64,000 nt of DNA from the IMG/VR virus record IMGVR_UViG_3300047552_000910, positions 34,930-98,929 of that record, one strand, 5' to 3'. The stretch is from a virus. A program made the position numbers and the translations under genes. The notes under the pieces are model-generated. The model was not told the origin of the DNA. It saw nothing but the letters and a program-made list of their open reading frames with translations, and did not search any database. Shown here piece by piece: positions 8,637-34,361 of this stretch (position 1 is the stretch's first letter; every line of letters starts with the position of its first letter).

Positions 8637-9404
8637 TTAGTTAAGCCATGCAGCAGGAGTCCACTCAACAGCAGGAATATCATTCACAAACATATCGAGT
8701 TTTTCCATAGCATTTCTTACTTGTGCAGTCTTACCAGCAGAAGATGCAGCAGCTTGATCTATTGCAATTCTAGCATCATTTACTAGTTTTTGAATTTCAG
8801 GACTAACGGTTTGCTTTGAAACGGGCTGTGTTGCACTAGATGCAGGTTGTGGGCTTGTTCCAGTAACCGGTGCGGTAGGTGCGCCGCTTCCGCCTTGTTG
8901 TGGGCTTGTGCTTGTAGCCGATTGCGTGCCGGTGCCTAATTTAGAAGTAACGGTGTCTTTGTATTTAACAGCCGCGGTAATAATTCCCGCACCGATTAAT
9001 GCCTTTTTCCAACTAGAATCTTGTATTAAAGTTCTCAATAAAGATAGTCGTGAGATTGGAGGCACTGGAGGCACGGGCGGCCGGGGCGGCGGAGTTGGCG
9101 CGGGAGGCAATTGGGCTCGAGTTACACCTCTTAATGCTGCAGGATCGGTGCCTGCTATTCTGTTATTTTGCGTATCAATCCAATGATTGCCATTCCATTT
9201 ATAATCTATTGAATCGGTGCCTCTTCTTATCTCGCCAACCACCGGAGGGGGTAGTGGCCCGCGAGAAAACAATGATTTAATTTTTCTGCCCGCAGTTCTA
9301 AGAGTGCCTGCTCCAACTTCGTTTAGCACTTCTTTTGATTCAATGTTTCGCAATCTACTTTGCAATAAAGACATCGATTCGGTTAGTGTAGGTTGATTAT
9401 TCAT
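8637..9404 (-). CDS. Hypothetical protein, probable virion/head-internal (Pro/Thr-rich linkers)
   Basis: 255-aa ORF with LTES and LNE motifs near the N-terminus. Confidence 0.5.
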   Translation of the reverse strand: MNNQPTLTESMSLLQSRLRNIESKEVLNEVGAGTLRTAGRKIKSLFSRGPLPPPVVGEIRRGTDSIDYKWNGNHWIDTQNNRIAGTDPAALRGVTRAQLPPAPTPPPRPPVPPVPPISRLSLLRTLIQDSSWKKALIGAGIITAAVKYKDTVTSKLGTGTQSATSTSPQQGGSGAPTAPVTGTSPQPASSATQPVSKQTVSPEIQKLVNDARIAIDQAAASSAGKTAQVRNAMEKLDMFVNDIPAVEWTPAAWLN

Positions 9405-26419: not shown

Positions 26420-27910
26420 TTAACCGCGAATTACATAAAATGTAGCAGGGTCGGGTGTCGGTATAGCATCATATAGTGCTTGTGTTAATGAAATAATATT
26501 TGTAATTCTTGTTGCACCAGGCACCGAAGATATATCTGATACCACTTTTGTATCATTTAATATTTTACCTTGTGCTGCAGACAGTGCAGCTACAATGGAC
26601 GTACTGTCAAGTGAATTAATTACCGATATGGTAACTCCTTGGATGCCTTGTGTACCTTGTATGCCCTGAACACCTTGCGAACCAACGCCAGCATTGCCAG
26701 TTCTGCCGGTGCTACCTTGGATTCCTTGCATGCCATCGGCACCCTGTATACCAATACTGCCAGTGTCTCCGGTTGTTCCTTGTGTTCCTTGAAGTCCTTG
26801 TGTTCCTTGGAAACTTCTACCTTGCGTGCCTTGATTTCCTTGTAAACCTTGAATGCCTTGGACTCCTTGCAATCCGATTACACCGGATGTGCCAATTAAT
26901 CCTTGTAAGCCAATTAGTCCTTGTGTGCCGTCTATTCCTTGAATGCCTTGCCCTGCAAATAAGCCATCTATGCCTTGTAAGCCAATTAATCCTTGGAGTC
27001 CTTGGAGTCCAAGTTCTCCTTGGAGGCCAGTTTCGCCGGTATAGCCTTGTATTCCTTGTACGCCCTGTATGCCAGCTTGTCCGGTAGACCCGTCCAAACC
27101 TTGAAGTCCTTGAATACCTTGTCCTGCAAATAACCCATTAATACCTTGGGCACCGTCAAATCCCTGGACACCTTGCTCTCCTTGGAGTCCTTGTGTCCCT
27201 TGTCTTCCTTGGAGTCCTTGTGTCCCCTGCCTTCCTTGAATACCTTGAATACCTTGAATACCTTGAATACTTTGCGTTCCTTGCGTGCCTTGCGTTCCTT
27301 GCGTTCCTTGTAATCCTTGTCTGCCTTGCGTCCCTTGTAATCCTTGCCTACCTTGAACTCCAGTAAAGCCCTGAATACCTTGAATGCTTTGATTTCCTTG
27401 TACGCCCTGAACTCCTTGCGTACCTTGTGTTCCTTGCCTTCCTTGTACGCCCTGGCGACCTTGAATACCTTGTAACCCTTGTATGCCTTGAATACTTTGA
27501 ACACCTTGAATTCCTTGTATACCTTGTATACCCTGTATACCTTGGTTGCCGCGAGCACCTTGCGCACCTTGTTTTCCTTGAATGCCTTGTACACCTTGAT
27601 TACTTGATAACCCTTGCAAGCCTTGCAAGCCTTGTAGTCCGTACAAGCCTTGTAATCCTTGTATGCCTTGTATGCCTTGCAGTCCTTGTATGCCTTGTAT
27701 GCTTTGTATGCCTTGGAATCCTAATAACCCCTGGAGACCTTGGATTCCAAATACACCTTGCAAGCCTTGCGGCCCGGGTATTAGATGAACCCCGTCAATT
27801 ATGCCTTGCATTGATAAAAAATTATTATTAACCTTTTGGAATGCGGCGCGAACATTGTCGCCTGTGCCATCATTTGCATAATTGCCGATAAGAATAGGGT
27901 CTATTGTCAT
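26420..27910 (-). CDS. Long collagen-like fibre protein (Gly-X-Gln repeats)
   Basis: ANDGTGD.VRAAF.KVN.NF anchor; roughly 380 aa of G-X-Q; C-terminal AALSAAQGK.L and LTQA.YDA.....P.TFYVI. Confidence 0.8.
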   Translation of the reverse strand: MTIDPILIGNYANDGTGDNVRAAFQKVNNNFLSMQGIIDGVHLIPGPQGLQGVFGIQGLQGLLGFQGIQSIQGIQGLQGIQGIQGLQGLYGLQGLQGLQGLSSNQGVQGIQGKQGAQGARGNQGIQGIQGIQGIQGVQSIQGIQGLQGIQGRQGVQGRQGTQGTQGVQGVQGNQSIQGIQGFTGVQGRQGLQGTQGRQGLQGTQGTQGTQGTQSIQGIQGIQGIQGRQGTQGLQGRQGTQGLQGEQGVQGFDGAQGINGLFAGQGIQGLQGLDGSTGQAGIQGVQGIQGYTGETGLQGELGLQGLQGLIGLQGIDGLFAGQGIQGIDGTQGLIGLQGLIGTSGVIGLQGVQGIQGLQGNQGTQGRSFQGTQGLQGTQGTTGDTGSIGIQGADGMQGIQGSTGRTGNAGVGSQGVQGIQGTQGIQGVTISVINSLDSTSIVAALSAAQGKILNDTKVVSDISSVPGATRITNIISLTQALYDAIPTPDPATFYVIRG

Positions 27911-27935
27911 GGTATATCCTGAAATTCACTTATAG

Positions 27936-27947
27936 TATTTACCTGTT
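27936..27947 (-). promoter_or_regulatory. Putative late promoter AACAGGTAAATA
   Basis: Fourth identical copy. Confidence 0.7.
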
Positions 27948-27972
27948 ATTGGATAAAGCTAATTTTCTAATC

Positions 27973-28000
27973 AAAAAAATACCGCAAATGATTGCGGTAT
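27973..28000 (-). terminator. Intrinsic terminator of the queD unit
   Basis: ataccgcaa-atga-ttgcggtat stem followed by a U-run on the - strand. Confidence 0.75.
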
Positions 28001-28007
28001 GTTATAA

Positions 28008-28172
28008 TTAATTTGACCAGTGTTGAATAATTCCGGCAATAATAGTCAAGTTAGTAATTAAATATATTAGAATTATCATAGTTCGGACGATAGCAATTTT
28101 ATCGGCTTCGGCATCATCCGAACTTGCTTTTTCACCAAGGGACTTGGCCCATATTCTCCAAATTTGTTTCAT
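28008..28172 (-). CDS. Small membrane protein, 54 aa (not in ORF track)
   Basis: MKQIWRIWAKSLGEKASSDDAEADKIAIVRTMIILIYLITNLTIIAGIIQHWSN; ATGA-coupled to the queD stop. Confidence 0.7.
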   Translation of the reverse strand: MKQIWRIWAKSLGEKASSDDAEADKIAIVRTMIILIYLITNLTIIAGIIQHWSN

Positions 28173-28720
28173 TCGCCTGTATATTTACAATGCGATTTTG
28201 CAGTTTCCCACAATTCTACTGATACAACAGTAGCAAAGTCTTTAATTTGCGATTGCACATATTGTTTAATATGTTTACAAATATTTTCAGAAGTAGGAAC
28301 AAAATCAACCAATACAAACGAATCAACAAATTCATCCATTAGCGTATCTGCATCTAACGGTAATGCTCCGGAGCACAACTCTCCGAGATTTGTAAAATTT
28401 AACAACGGACCAGGAGCCCATTTCATCCCTGTAATTGTACGGAATAACGGATCGTTAACATCGATCATAAACTTATGATCTAGTACTTCGTCGACAAACT
28501 TTTTTACGAAGTTTAAGTTCTTAAAATCTGTAACCATTCCAGACTGATCTAATTTATCCGATCCAAGATGCACTTTAATCGTATAGCTGTGGCCGTGAAG
28601 ATGTTTGCATTTTGTGTACGTATCGATACTAAGCTCTGGATTATTTAGTTGTTGTGCCCAAACACGATGCCCCATTTCAAAATTAAAACTTTTTGATATT
28701 GTCCACTTATAGTCGTTCAT
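28169..28720 (-). CDS. queD: 6-carboxy-5,6,7,8-tetrahydropterin synthase (QueD/PTPS)
   Basis: F.FEMGH, KC.HLHGHSY, GMV.DF, LDH, PTSENI, ELWET. Confidence 0.9.
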   Translation of the reverse strand: MNDYKWTISKSFNFEMGHRVWAQQLNNPELSIDTYTKCKHLHGHSYTIKVHLGSDKLDQSGMVTDFKNLNFVKKFVDEVLDHKFMIDVNDPLFRTITGMKWAPGPLLNFTNLGELCSGALPLDADTLMDEFVDSFVLVDFVPTSENICKHIKQYVQSQIKDFATVVSVELWETAKSHCKYTGE

Positions 28721-28741
28721 TTAACGCTCCTTAAAATATAT

Positions 28742-28781
28742 ATTTTATACGAAATAAAAAAGAAAAGCAAATTTATAAATA
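28742..28781. promoter_or_regulatory. Back-to-back promoters: TTGCTT-17-TAAAAT (-, queD) and TATAAATA (+, endonuclease)
   Basis: Motifs read at 28742-28770 and 28774-28781. Confidence 0.6.
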
Positions 28782-28841
28782 ATGGTGTAGTTCGCGGAAC
28801 ACCCATTCCCAACTACCCTAACAATATGGAGCATTGCCAGC

Positions 28842-29504
28842 ATGAATATTTATTATGTTTACGCATATTTACGAAACAAATCTTCCCAAATAGCAGAAAT
28901 TGGAACGCCTTATTACATCGGCAAAGGTAAAAATAATAGAGCGTATCAGAAACACCGAACTGGTTCACGCGGCATTTCGCTTCCTTTAGACAAATCTAAT
29001 ATTGTAATATTAGAAAGAAATTTAACCGAAGTTGGTGCACTTGCATTAGAGCGCAGAATGATAAGATGGTATGGCCGGAAAGATTTAGGAACCGGTATAT
29101 TGCTAAACTTAACAGACGGCGGAGACGGTGCTCCAAATGTTATAATTACAGAAAATAAAAGGTTAAAACTGCAAGCTGCGGCCCGCCACCGCCCGCCGTT
29201 ATCAGCAGAAACCAGAGAAAAAATAGGTAGAAAACATGCTGGTATGAAAAAATTTTCAGAAGAGCAAAAAATTGAAATGTCATCTAATCGGGCATTATGC
29301 AGGTGGTGGAATAACGGTATAATTCAATTTTTTGTTCCGACTCCGCCCGATTCTTCTTTTATTCGAGGAAGACTGCCTTTTAATAACATAGGAGCTAAAA
29401 TAGGTTCTGACATAAACAAAGAAAAAAGGTGGTGGACTAATGGAAGCACTCAGGTATTTTCTAAAGGCTGTCCTAACGAAGAATTTAGACCAGGACGAAA
29501 ATAA
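28842..29504 (+). CDS. GIY-YIG-like free-standing homing endonuclease with NUMOD3-like motif
   Basis: YYVYAY...PYYIGKG..R, LALE..MI..YGR...[16 protein letters not shown], two WW.NG repeats; opposite strand to neighbours. Confidence 0.82.
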
Positions 29505-29506
29505 AA

Positions 29507-29605
29507 TTATACAATATCAAGCTCTGGGTTATTTAATTGCTGTGCCCACACCCGGTGGCCCATTTCGAAATTAAAACTTTTTGATATTGTCCACTTGTAA
29601 TCCAT
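29507..29605 (-). pseudogene. queD: Orphaned 5' fragment of queD (32 codons)
   Basis: MDYKWTISKSFNFEMGHRVWAQQLNNPELDIV*: 28 aa identical to QueD residues 3-30. Confidence 0.9.
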
Positions 29606-29610
29606 AATTT

Positions 29611-30855
29611 TTAGCCTGTTTTTAATAGAATGATATTATCGTTCATTCTGCCTGTTGCTCGAATGTCGACTGTAGTAACGTCGTCTAGAAACTTACGTAG
29701 TGCTACTTTATTAGCTGCTTTAAACGCAGCAATCTGCACTACTGGTTGCCTTAATGTTTTACCGATGCTTCTAGTTTCATCAAATCCAATAATACTAGTT
29801 CCTTTGACTGACAATGTAGAATTATCTGATGTTACGTATTTAAACAATTTTCGAGTATTAGTATCGTATGCCCACAATTCTTTAGCACCAATAATATCAA
29901 CAGGGTTGATACTTACTAGCTTGAGGAATTCATCTATTTTCTTGTATTTCAAAGAAGCCACTATTTTATCTTTAGGAACAACCTTGGAAATAGTCTTACG
30001 AACTGTTGGTTTACGAACAACTTTAGCTTCTTCAGTTAAGATTTTGCAAGCAGACATAATTTCTTGGTAGAAAGTAATCAACCCTCGAATTTGCTTTTTA
30101 CTACGAGTATTATATCCTTCTCTTAACTGAGGATCGGCATTACTAGAAGCAAGTTCCAATAATTCAGTTAAAGGAGAAGTATAGAAATCTGTAATAATAC
30201 GAGCATGCGCAGGTTTTACTTGCTTACCTTTCAAATAGTTTAGTACTTTGAACGCACTAAATAATTGTTCGTCGCCAGAAACCCAATAATCTTCAATCAA
30301 TTCATCGATGTCTACCACCATATTTAGAGCAATGTCTTTAACTCGTTCTTGAATAGAAACTACAGGTTTAGAAACTGCTTTGGTTATTGGTGTAACTGGT
30401 TGTTGCGTATCGGTACTAACTTCGTCTACTAGTAGTAAGTCATTTTTCCCGTCTTGAATAGCTTGATTCACCATCTTAAGGAGCCATTCAGAGCAATCCT
30501 TACCGTTATTAAAGTCGTCTCGTTGGGGAGTCATTCCTTTAATTAAAGAAGAAGCAATAGCACCCATAGTAACAGAGCATCGCCAATCTTTAGTTTTCTT
30601 AAACTTAGCAATATCAGTTGATTCTGCACCGATATTAGTAAGCCACTTAATAACAATTGGCTTTAAGTCTTTACCGGAGTATTTAAGATTATAATAATTC
30701 AGTGCCTTATAGAAGTTAGAAGAAAACTCGTCTACCTCCCACATATCGCATCCGTCCCAAGACGGCGAGTTATCTACCTTAGACGATGCACGATGCTTAT
30801 CGATTTGCTTTGCTGTGACCCGCGTCCGTGTTGCTACTTTTGCACGTAATGCCAT
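29611..30855 (-). CDS. Hypothetical phage protein
   Basis: 414-aa ORF with own sigma70 promoter; LVSINPVDIIGA..LW.Y.T..RKL...L.VKGT C-terminal domain. Confidence 0.7.
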   Translation of the reverse strand: MALRAKVATRTRVTAKQIDKHRASSKVDNSPSWDGCDMWEVDEFSSNFYKALNYYNLKYSGKDLKPIVIKWLTNIGAESTDIAKFKKTKDWRCSVTMGAIASSLIKGMTPQRDDFNNGKDCSEWLLKMVNQAIQDGKNDLLLVDEVSTDTQQPVTPITKAVSKPVVSIQERVKDIALNMVVDIDELIEDYWVSGDEQLFSAFKVLNYLKGKQVKPAHARIITDFYTSPLTELLELASSNADPQLREGYNTRSKKQIRGLITFYQEIMSACKILTEEAKVVRKPTVRKTISKVVPKDKIVASLKYKKIDEFLKLVSINPVDIIGAKELWAYDTNTRKLFKYVTSDNSTLSVKGTSIIGFDETRSIGKTLRQPVVQIAAFKAANKVALRKFLDDVTTVDIRATGRMNDNIILLKTG

Positions 30856-33027: not shown

Positions 33028-34361
33028 TACAGCTTTTCACCTGGTTGGAAGCCACGAAAACGAGAAAATCTCGGAAATCTAATACTATATGTGTTGTCTT
33101 GGTTTTGCGTTACAGCATCCCCATAGCACTCGATAATTTGCCCAATAAGGTCGCGCTTATGCTGCCAAAAATCAATACGATCATTGTCAGACAATCCACT
33201 GCCAACGTTAACTTGAATAAGTCTTCCTTCATCAATGCCCTTGCAAACCATTGCTCCAAGTCGTCCTGCATTCTTACCTGTGCCTTCTTCAACATCTATT
33301 ATCTCCAAATCTACAGAAATTACTGGCTTTAGCTTTAGCCATGCTGTACTTCTTTTACATTCATACGGAGCAGTTGGATCTTTAATTAGCAATCCTTCGT
33401 ATCCGTTGTCTAATGCTAGCTTGTTTATTTCCGTAAACTTAGTTTTACCGTCTTCAGTATCAAGATTTACTGTTTCTTGCCCTAACAGTTGGACATTAGG
33501 CAGTTGTTCTGATAGCGGAGTGTACCAATCTCTCAAATCATTAGAACGTTGTGTTTGTGATACTTCGTAAACACCACGTTTAAACTCAGTTAATGGAATC
33601 ATGTCAAACAAGTGAAGTACTGCGTCGCTTGTTTCTACGTTTTCTTTTCGTCTAAGTTGTTTCATTAAATCCTGGAAAGAACTTGACATAATTTCGCCGT
33701 CGAATACCATTGGTTCTTTAATAGTATCACTAATCGTACGAAATTGCTCCGTAATCTTATTAAAGTTTACTAATTCTTTTCCATTACGAGAAAATTGCAT
33801 AACATTATCAGGATACACAATAGTCAATACTCGTGTTCCGTCAAGCTTGGTTTCAATAATCTTTTCACCACTTAGCTTTGATTCGTGCTTTTTAGAATCA
33901 AACGCGAGTTGACATTCGAACACTGGAATAGTGTAGTTAGGATTGATATTCTTAACTACCTTATTTATAGTAACCTCGCTTAGTCCCGCCCGCAAGTCTT
34001 TAATAAGAATACGGCGATACCAATCGTTCCATTGTTCAATAGTTGATAGTTTCATTGAAACGTTAATTAAGTCGCGAGCAGCATTGCCCGTAACGTCCCT
34101 GTTACTTAGTGCTCGCAGTTCCTTTAAAAACAATGCCCAGTTATATCCAGGGCCGCTTGGTCCTTTATGGACTGGGATTTGCTTAACACCAAATGTTACT
34201 AACGAGTCTAATGCCAGTTTAAAACCGAGAAACAATTCGTTATTGTTTGCAATTGCTTCTCGTTCAATAATAGCCTCTTTAGCCAAACGAGAAGAAGTAC
34301 TTTCTAGTTCTTGGATAACAGACCATGCTTGTTGCATTTTAAAATCTCGATTTAGTTTCAA
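33027..34361 (-). CDS. lig: ATP-dependent DNA ligase
   Basis: ETKLDGTR (motif I), FDGE, EGLLIK, WLKLKP, VGSG, RFPRF. Confidence 0.92.
   Translation of the reverse strand: MKLNRDFKMQQAWSVIQELESTSSRLAKEAIIEREAIANNNELFLGFKLALDSLVTFGVKQIPVHKGPSGPGYNWALFLKELRALSNRDVTGNAARDLINVSMKLSTIEQWNDWYRRILIKDLRAGLSEVTINKVVKNINPNYTIPVFECQLAFDSKKHESKLSGEKIIETKLDGTRVLTIVYPDNVMQFSRNGKELVNFNKITEQFRTISDTIKEPMVFDGEIMSSSFQDLMKQLRRKENVETSDAVLHLFDMIPLTEFKRGVYEVSQTQRSNDLRDWYTPLSEQLPNVQLLGQETVNLDTEDGKTKFTEINKLALDNGYEGLLIKDPTAPYECKRSTAWLKLKPVISVDLEIIDVEEGTGKNAGRLGAMVCKGIDEGRLIQVNVGSGLSDNDRIDFWQHKRDLIGQIIECYGDAVTQNQDNTYSIRFPRFSRFRGFQPGEKL

Follow-up and report, generated by a model that had tools for sequence, protein, structure and literature searches.

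A GIY-YIG endonuclease gene between a queD 5' stub and a complete, promoter-equipped queD gene in an uncultured phage

The locus described here lies in a 64,000-nt window (W, the whole stretch of DNA analysed) of the IMG/VR virus record IMGVR_UViG_3300047552_000910, and contains a free-standing gene for a GIY-YIG endonuclease placed between two starts of the gene queD, one truncated and the other belonging to a complete gene. The record is 98.9 kb long with a completeness estimate of 28%, so that the phage of which W is a part would have a genome of roughly 350 kb; complete or near-complete records of related phages measure 259-372 kb. Following the direction of queD, the first gene is a 414-aa gene (29611..30855, minus strand) of PHROG 11903, without assigned function, whose stop codon is found 5 nt before the ATG of a 32-codon open reading frame (ORF; 29507..29605, minus strand). 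Codons 2-29 of this ORF (29519-29602) match the beginning of the intact queD, and we refer to it as the stub. It is followed by a short junction (29505..29518), extending from the end of the stub homology to the endonuclease stop codon and with no queD similarity left, then by the endonuclease gene on the opposite strand (220 aa, 28842..29504, plus strand), a leader region, and the intact queD (183 aa, 28169..28720, minus strand). Homologues of the 414-aa gene are also found upstream of queD in L127, L119, L125 and L140 (L-numbers denote other uncultured phage contigs).

The duplicated queD segment comprises 28 codons (84 nt) and is located at 28631-28714 in the intact gene and at 29519-29602 in the stub, both on the minus strand. 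The initial annotation of this DNA had reported two queD starts with exclusively synonymous differences around an opposite-strand gene, and our alignment gives the same picture, 10 of the 28 aligned codons being different and all 10 differences being synonymous. The intact gene has in addition one codon more near its start (MNDYKW vs MDYKW in the stub). After the common ...NNPEL the stub reads D-I-V-stop and ends, as had been annotated, 3 codons past the breakpoint. Its position 5 nt behind the 414-aa gene is in agreement with the native operon position proposed for it, since L127 has queD in that slot. Within the phage's own genome the stub is the second match to queD.

The product of the intact gene belongs to the QueD/6-carboxytetrahydropterin synthase family (Pfam PF01242, 6e-31; PHROG 2389, 8e-38), the PF01242 match scoring 107 bits against a gathering cut-off of 22.4 and covering profile positions 1-121 of 121. 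Residues H18, C38, H42 and H44 do not vary in alignment A1, and we take the three histidines to be the zinc-binding triad and C38 to be the catalytic cysteine. Among these active-site residues the stub retains H18 alone, the C-x-x-x-H-G-H half of the site being absent. No queD product more than 68% identical to that of W was found among 5.8 billion proteins, a degenerate DNA pattern for the exact N-terminal peptide of QueD had no match in IMG/VR, and a DNA search of cultured phages (50,697 phage records) returned as sole match 92 nt, at 75%, to the queD of Pseudomonas jumbo phages. A gene for FolE (GTP cyclohydrolase I) is present in the same record outside W (G000:C1:28171-28698), and QueC and TGT-family genes were not found in the 99 kb of the record, which represent 28% of the genome.

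The opposite-strand gene had been described as GIY-YIG-like, and several lines of evidence agree with this. The W protein matches PHROG 314 "homing endonuclease" at 3e-11; alone it has no Pfam match even at E 10, and a profile of 38 sequences matches the solved GIY-YIG protein 9u75 with an E value of 2.3e-5. Y5, Y7, Y25, G27, R33, E70 and N89, corresponding to the GIY, YIG, Arg, Glu and Asn motifs, are invariant in the 38 relatives, and judged from this alignment the catalytic residues are intact. In the AlphaFold model, residues 1-92 have a pLDDT mostly above 83, with values below 50 for the C-terminal 65 residues. When residues 1-92 were compared with 48,161 chains, the top three structures were all GIY-YIG domains, namely 9u75 (Z 6.5, rmsd 3.5, 76 aligned), the UvrC N-domain (Z 5.3) and the I-TevI catalytic domain 1ln0 (Z 5.0, 75/92 aligned), the Z values being middling; Foldseek gave no match below E 0.001, and its best one (E 0.09) was also a GIY-YIG protein. 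More than 1,100 relatives are found at E <1e-30, of which nine are full-length; these are 57-84% identical among themselves and 58-69% identical to the W enzyme, and each of the nine with a visible gene context adjoins queD. The W endonuclease is thus a GIY-YIG enzyme and a member of a queD-linked subfamily. NUMOD3 is significant in the relatives L025 (1e-11) and L017 (2e-12), not in the W endonuclease, and the L017 relative matches the LEM-3 GIY-YIG model at 7.5e-9. The subfamily is present at queD in W, L011, L105-L107 and L154 and absent at 20 queD loci whose available upstream sequence is at least 900 nt long, and it was not found in a scan of species-representative prokaryote genomes. The element had also been said to contain neither intron nor intein, which is borne out by the orientation of the ORF, opposite to queD, and by a search for intron families in 27500-30500 that found none at E values up to 1. 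As to the wider endonuclease family, the genome of L011 (G001, 259 kb) has at least 5 members, and the complete 372-kb genome of L016 (G002) has one weak match.

The leader between the endonuclease gene and the intact queD has the same order in four lineages (W, L011, L105 and L154), a stem-loop being followed by a ATTATTTAT block and then by the queD promoter. In W the stem-loop GTAGTT...AACTAC, with an inner 4-bp stem, occupies 28783..28820; RNAalifold predicts 14 pairs from four sequences, 4 of them with compensatory changes. The motif occurs twice in W against 0.08 expected. Further intergenic copies are located at W 33933-33959, L105:1278-1333 and L011:12328-12381, and since copies sit at such other sites the stem-loop would be a repeated regulatory cassette, not specific for queD. 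Read on the endonuclease strand, the ATTATTTAT block is TATAAATA in W and L154; the L011 and L105 versions deviate from it by one base. This motif (28774..28781, plus strand) resembles a T4 late promoter facing the endonuclease gene, a putative function deduced by reading the sequence, and its core ATAAATAAT is conserved in L011, L105 and L154. The sigma-70-like promoter of the intact queD (28742..28770, minus strand) consists of TTGCTT (28770..28765), 17 nt and TAAAAT (28747..28742), with an AAGGAG ribosome-binding site 3' of the hexamers. The initial annotation had credited the intact copy with its own promoter; the hexamers are indeed there and their position is conserved in the four lineages, but they score only 8/12, under the threshold of a consensus scan, which missed them. 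The leader resembles the PeSL cassettes of T4-type phages (PMC2839356, PMC4122927), in which a conserved intergenic stem-loop is also followed by a sigma-70-like promoter and which are likewise repeated within the genome and among relatives and associated with gene shuffling. It differs from them by its stem sequence, by its link to endonuclease leaders, and in that its promoter and terminator activities are putative.

The same arrangement recurs in other phages. L011, a 259-kb contig, and L154, a 318-kb contig, come from samples other than that of W. L011 presents in order a 33-codon stub (9104..9205), an opposite-strand endonuclease gene (66% identical), a TTGCTT-17-TATAAT promoter and an intact queD, with 12 synonymous and 2 conservative changes between the stub and the intact copy. 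To within 2 nt, the stub breaks off at the same codon in W and L011, and the junction length is 14 nt in W, against 12 nt in L154 and a single nucleotide in L011. L154 (3137-4588) contains a stub of about 24 codons of the W queD type, an endonuclease 58% identical to that of W, and then a queD from another clade, with no more than 37% identity and the motif K-A-K-C-R-H-I-H-G-H, which implies the replacement of the whole gene. The gene upstream of the stub is different in W, L011 and L154. In L105-L107 the endonuclease (68% identical), the stem-loop leader, the promoter and queD are all present without any stub, the endonuclease gene lying between genes with its 3' end overlapping the stop codon of an exonuclease gene that converges on it. 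At the nucleotide level L011 and L105 are homologous (75%) solely in the stretch bounded by the 3' end of the endonuclease gene and the stop of queD, indicating that the shared unit is the endonuclease with the leader and queD. In every relative the working queD start and its promoter directly adjoin the endonuclease, as expected if, as had been annotated, the element supplies a replacement start and promoter; the stub-less L105-L107 indicate, however, that these are the ordinary front of an endonuclease-linked queD module and not a dedicated cargo. The naive layout anticipated by the initial annotation, with queD directly behind the 414-aa gene, is found in L127, where queD (61% identical protein) begins about 16 nt behind the homologue of that gene, with neither endonuclease nor promoter. 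About 110 loci with endonucleases of the wider family were scanned at the DNA and protein levels; flanking duplications were detected besides W only in L011 and L025/L030, and the stub layout is therefore not a general property of the family.

Some neighbouring observations concern related endonucleases or queD loci. In L025 (3751-4668) and L030, an opposite-strand endonuclease with NUMOD3 motifs (53% identical) lies just upstream of a T4-like DNA polymerase gene. On either side of it the promoter/5' leader of the polymerase occurs as a direct repeat of 59 nt (90% identity), and the outer one of the two repeats encodes the C-terminus of the endonuclease. L161 (404-1017) has two queD starts around a 73-aa ORF, with no endonuclease and with 2 synonymous changes over 25 aligned codons; its first queD copy consists of 54 codons fused to a duplicate of the C-terminus of the upstream gene. 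In L017 (3917-4603), and also in L112, L114, L115 and L165, an unrelated GIY-YIG/NUMOD3 endonuclease (29% identical) is encoded on the queD strand and overlaps the queD start, and L018/L019 have a different insert of 480 nt in the same slot. The comparison of L017 with L018/L019, which differ in the presence of this endonuclease, showed a swap of intergenic inserts and no duplication. The space preceding queD is a hot spot for insertions.

Endonuclease-linked queD alleles differ from the others just beyond the duplicated segment, at codons 35-39 (Y-T-K-C-K in W, 28604..28618, minus strand), about 7 nt past the breakpoint of the stub. All 25 distinct alleles not linked to the subfamily endonuclease, namely 23 whose available upstream sequence contains no recognised homologue of an endonuclease and 2 that lie next to unrelated endonucleases, keep TGy-GCn-TGy-AAr-CAy, which encodes C-A-C-K-H, a part of the active-site motif; endonuclease-free alleles read D/E-C-A-C-K at codons 35-39. 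In the three endonuclease-linked lineages this stretch is changed, to Y-T-K-C-K-H in W, V-C-H-C-R-H in L011 and D-C-Q-C-R-H in L105-L107, and codon 37, an alanine codon GCN in 25/25 of the other alleles, is changed in each of them. Among 120 queD cluster representatives 98 have C-A-C-K-H and only four C-[QH]-C-R-H; two of these four may be linked to subfamily endonucleases, the lengths of the respective contigs being equal. The changed codons span 7-21 nt past the point where the W and L011 stubs cease to resemble queD, a spacing suggesting that the enzyme recognises the conserved DNA of the active-site motif and cuts near codon 31/32, at the end of the stub, in the manner of I-TevI. The carrier alleles may then be immune through amino-acid changes located outside the duplicated segment. 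Sequence differences as a protection against recutting had been suggested for the synonymous changes of the two copies; these appear less likely to have this role than the non-synonymous changes of codons 35-39, and in that case the donor tract would reach at least codon 39.

The initial annotation regarded both queD starts as recently functional alleles, and the available comparisons fit this. When two functional queD genes differ by 7-12 synonymous codons in this segment, their products in most cases differ by 5-6 amino acids as well, and a few pairs within sub-lineages, for instance L011 vs L105-L107, have 7-12 synonymous and 0 non-synonymous codon differences. The purely synonymous divergence in W would thus fit two functional alleles of one sub-lineage, and the W stub is unlike a dead copy diverging in place, which should gather mostly non-synonymous changes. 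The protein sequence encoded by the intact 5' end of L011 is exactly of the L105 type and the nearest nucleotide neighbour of this end is L105 (66/75), the L011 stub is nearest to another lineage, L017 (66/75), and the two copies share 62/75 with each other, which lends modest support to a donor origin of the one and a recipient origin of the other. An attempt at polarising the 10 synonymous differences of W with outgroups failed, the third positions being saturated.

We moderately favour the proposal that a module made of the endonuclease, the stem-loop leader, the promoter and an uncuttable queD homed into a naive queD, and that the stub was left by one-sided repair. We infer the cleavage position, the immunity, the direction of transfer and the repair route from sequence comparison, and the events would be as follows. 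The enzyme would recognise the DNA encoding C-A-C-K-H-L-H-G-H in a naive queD, placed in the ancestral phage directly behind the 414-aa gene, and would cut it 10-20 nt upstream, near codon 31/32. A relative carrying the module would serve as the template for repair, homologous recombination taking place 3' of the break, either within queD or past it. As the two genomes lack synteny 5' of the break, the join at that end would be illegitimate, leaving the first ~31 codons of the resident queD as a stub that abuts the endonuclease stop codon. The donor promoter, gene start and immune codons 35-39 would now serve the working queD. One-sided homing with illegitimate repair at microhomologies is known from T4 experiments (PMC2988022), and for SegB a duplication has been shown that depends on the endonuclease and has its junction at the 3' end of the gene for it (PMC13096335).

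Several points weigh against this proposal. The endonuclease stop lies 0-14 nt from the stub in three lineages, which is tighter than independent illegitimate joins predict, and the downstream queD of L154 belongs to another clade, so that recombination inside queD cannot explain that locus. The W copies are nearest to each other (67/75, the next best being 60/75), which fits a local duplication as well, and since the best relative has only 68% protein identity, donor and recipient alleles are indistinguishable in W. The G+C content at third codon positions is 0.46 for the W stub, 0.25 for the intact 5' end and 0.29 for the genome, and the signal is opposite in L011, with 0.29 for the stub vs 0.39 for the intact 5' end. 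The association with codon 37 comes from three lineages, two of which are related, and cleavage by the endonuclease is putative.

Another possibility, which we consider unlikely, is a single origin of the stub-bearing form with two-sided homing, in which the stub would be the left homology arm and the queD body the right arm, the stub being a working part of the element. Each transfer would replace the outer stub with recipient sequence, so that the stub would come to resemble the local functional allele. The tight junctions (0-14 nt) and the common breakpoint, within 2 nt and with the same orientation in W and L011, would speak for one origin, together with the presence of intact stubs across endonuclease lineages 58-68% identical, too old for neutral DNA unless renewed, and with a stub decay seen only at the junction-proximal end in W and L154. 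Several origins are suggested instead by the residues specific to the W lineage that the W stub carries up to the breakpoint, which would limit the co-conversion tract to less than 10 nt, by the different neighbouring genes, and by junction sequences and endonuclease C-terminal tails that differ in every lineage; moreover, L105-L107 have no stub and an arm of 84 nt is short. A broader form, to which we give a similarly low credence, would make of the stub the left arm of a self-contained cassette, followed by the endonuclease, the leader, the promoter and the front of an immune gene and entering genes without intron or intein. If this were true, such a cassette would recur at different targets, queD here and the DNA polymerase 5' region in L025/L030.

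The nearness of the two W copies to each other would also be expected if the duplication had arisen within one genome and diverged afterwards, by a nuclease-driven segmental amplification or by the Campbell-type integration of an excised mini-circle containing the endonuclease gene together with the promoter and the 5' end of queD. Both processes have precedents, since SegB drives tandem amplification in T6 through a microhomology between the segB 3' end and a tRNA 5' end (PMC13096335), and mini-circles arise between promoter-stem-loop cassettes (PMC2839356); the partial queD duplication of L161, without endonuclease, and the 59-nt promoter repeats around the related endonuclease of L025/L030 point in the same direction. 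We nevertheless hold this origin to be improbable. A dead copy should gain non-synonymous changes, which are only 0/10 in W and 2/14 in L011; the stub occupies the naive position 5 nt behind the 414-aa gene and not one behind a copy of the leader, and each L011 copy is nearer to other lineages than to its partner.

It seems very improbable that the stub is kept for a benefit to the phage, as a 32-aa peptide, a device for ribosome landing or termination, or the start of an antisense transcript damping the endonuclease. The start codon, the ribosome-binding site and the reading frame are retained in three lineages and the invariant F-E-M-G-H-R-V-W is intact in 3/3 stubs, but the C-x-x-x-H-G-H half of the active site is missing, L105-L107 manage without a stub, and its length varies from about 24 codons in L154 to 31. 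Finally, although W comes from a metagenome contig and its copies differ as alleles do, a collapse or chimeric joining of queD alleles from co-existing strains can practically be dismissed, because the independent L011 and L154 assemblies from other samples show the same layout with a conserved junction geometry.

Returning to homing of the module with one-sided repair, the locus can be compared with known systems. As with T4 SegA-G and intronless homing (PMC2988022, PMC2330249), a stand-alone GIY-YIG gene, which some relatives have and others lack, lies beside its target, the presumed target is altered in the carrier allele, and neighbouring sequence is co-inherited; the seg genes, however, lie between intact genes with no gene fragment, whereas W has a queD 5' stub and an enzyme with no Pfam match of its own and with a putative cleavage activity. 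The T4 one-sided homing, with homology on one side and a microhomology join on the other, was proposed as a route to ectopic sites and is the repair route that would apply here, but it is an engineered laboratory system with an intron, whereas the present loci would be natural products in uncultured phages and their junction sequences are too diverged for a microhomology to be identified. In fungal mitochondria, C-terminal duplications of atp6 and cob beside GIY-YIG/LAGLIDADG ORFs (PMC6279837) likewise consist of one copy completing the gene and one leftover; they concern 3' ends in organelles with no promoter needed, in contrast to the phage 5' end, the opposite-strand endonuclease, and the promoter and ribosome-binding site of the working copy in W. 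Split genes, with mobE in Aeh1 nrdA and mobA in T4 gene 39/60 (PMC2988022), also have a free-standing endonuclease inside a former single gene whose function is kept, but both halves work there and reassemble as subunits, whereas W has a complete gene and a redundant stub. Precedents exist for free-standing GIY-YIG endonucleases, for co-conversion, for split genes, for one-sided repair and for the duplicated gene 3' ends of fungal mitochondria, and in the literature we found no description of a phage endonuclease that has a 5' stub on one side and, on the other, an immune copy of the gene with a promoter. The combination of stub, opposite-strand endonuclease and promoter-equipped queD is a new variation on known endonuclease-associated arrangements.

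Downstream of the intact queD, a 54-aa gene (28008..28172, minus strand) has its start overlapping the queD stop (ATGA) and is followed by a hairpin terminator (27979-28000). Further on, a 496-aa ORF (W 26420-27910, minus strand) consists almost wholly of collagen-like G-x-x triplets (GIQGLQG...), and its first 26 residues are conserved beside queD loci in many relatives.

To our knowledge, endonuclease genes have been thought to persist inside genes only through an intron, an intein or a split into two working halves. The loci described here would add a fourth outcome in nature, in which the element arrives with a promoter and an uncuttable gene front and the old start is left as a stub. The end of the stub would mark the probable cut site and the changed active-site codons the probable recognition site, thus giving for the enzyme of an uncultured phage a precise, cheap and testable prediction of its target. 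The same loci would illustrate in nature the one-sided, illegitimate repair that had been put forward, after laboratory crosses of T4, as the means by which these elements arrive at new sites, and they may represent a case where the pressure of an endonuclease forces amino-acid change beside the catalytic cysteine of a metabolic enzyme.

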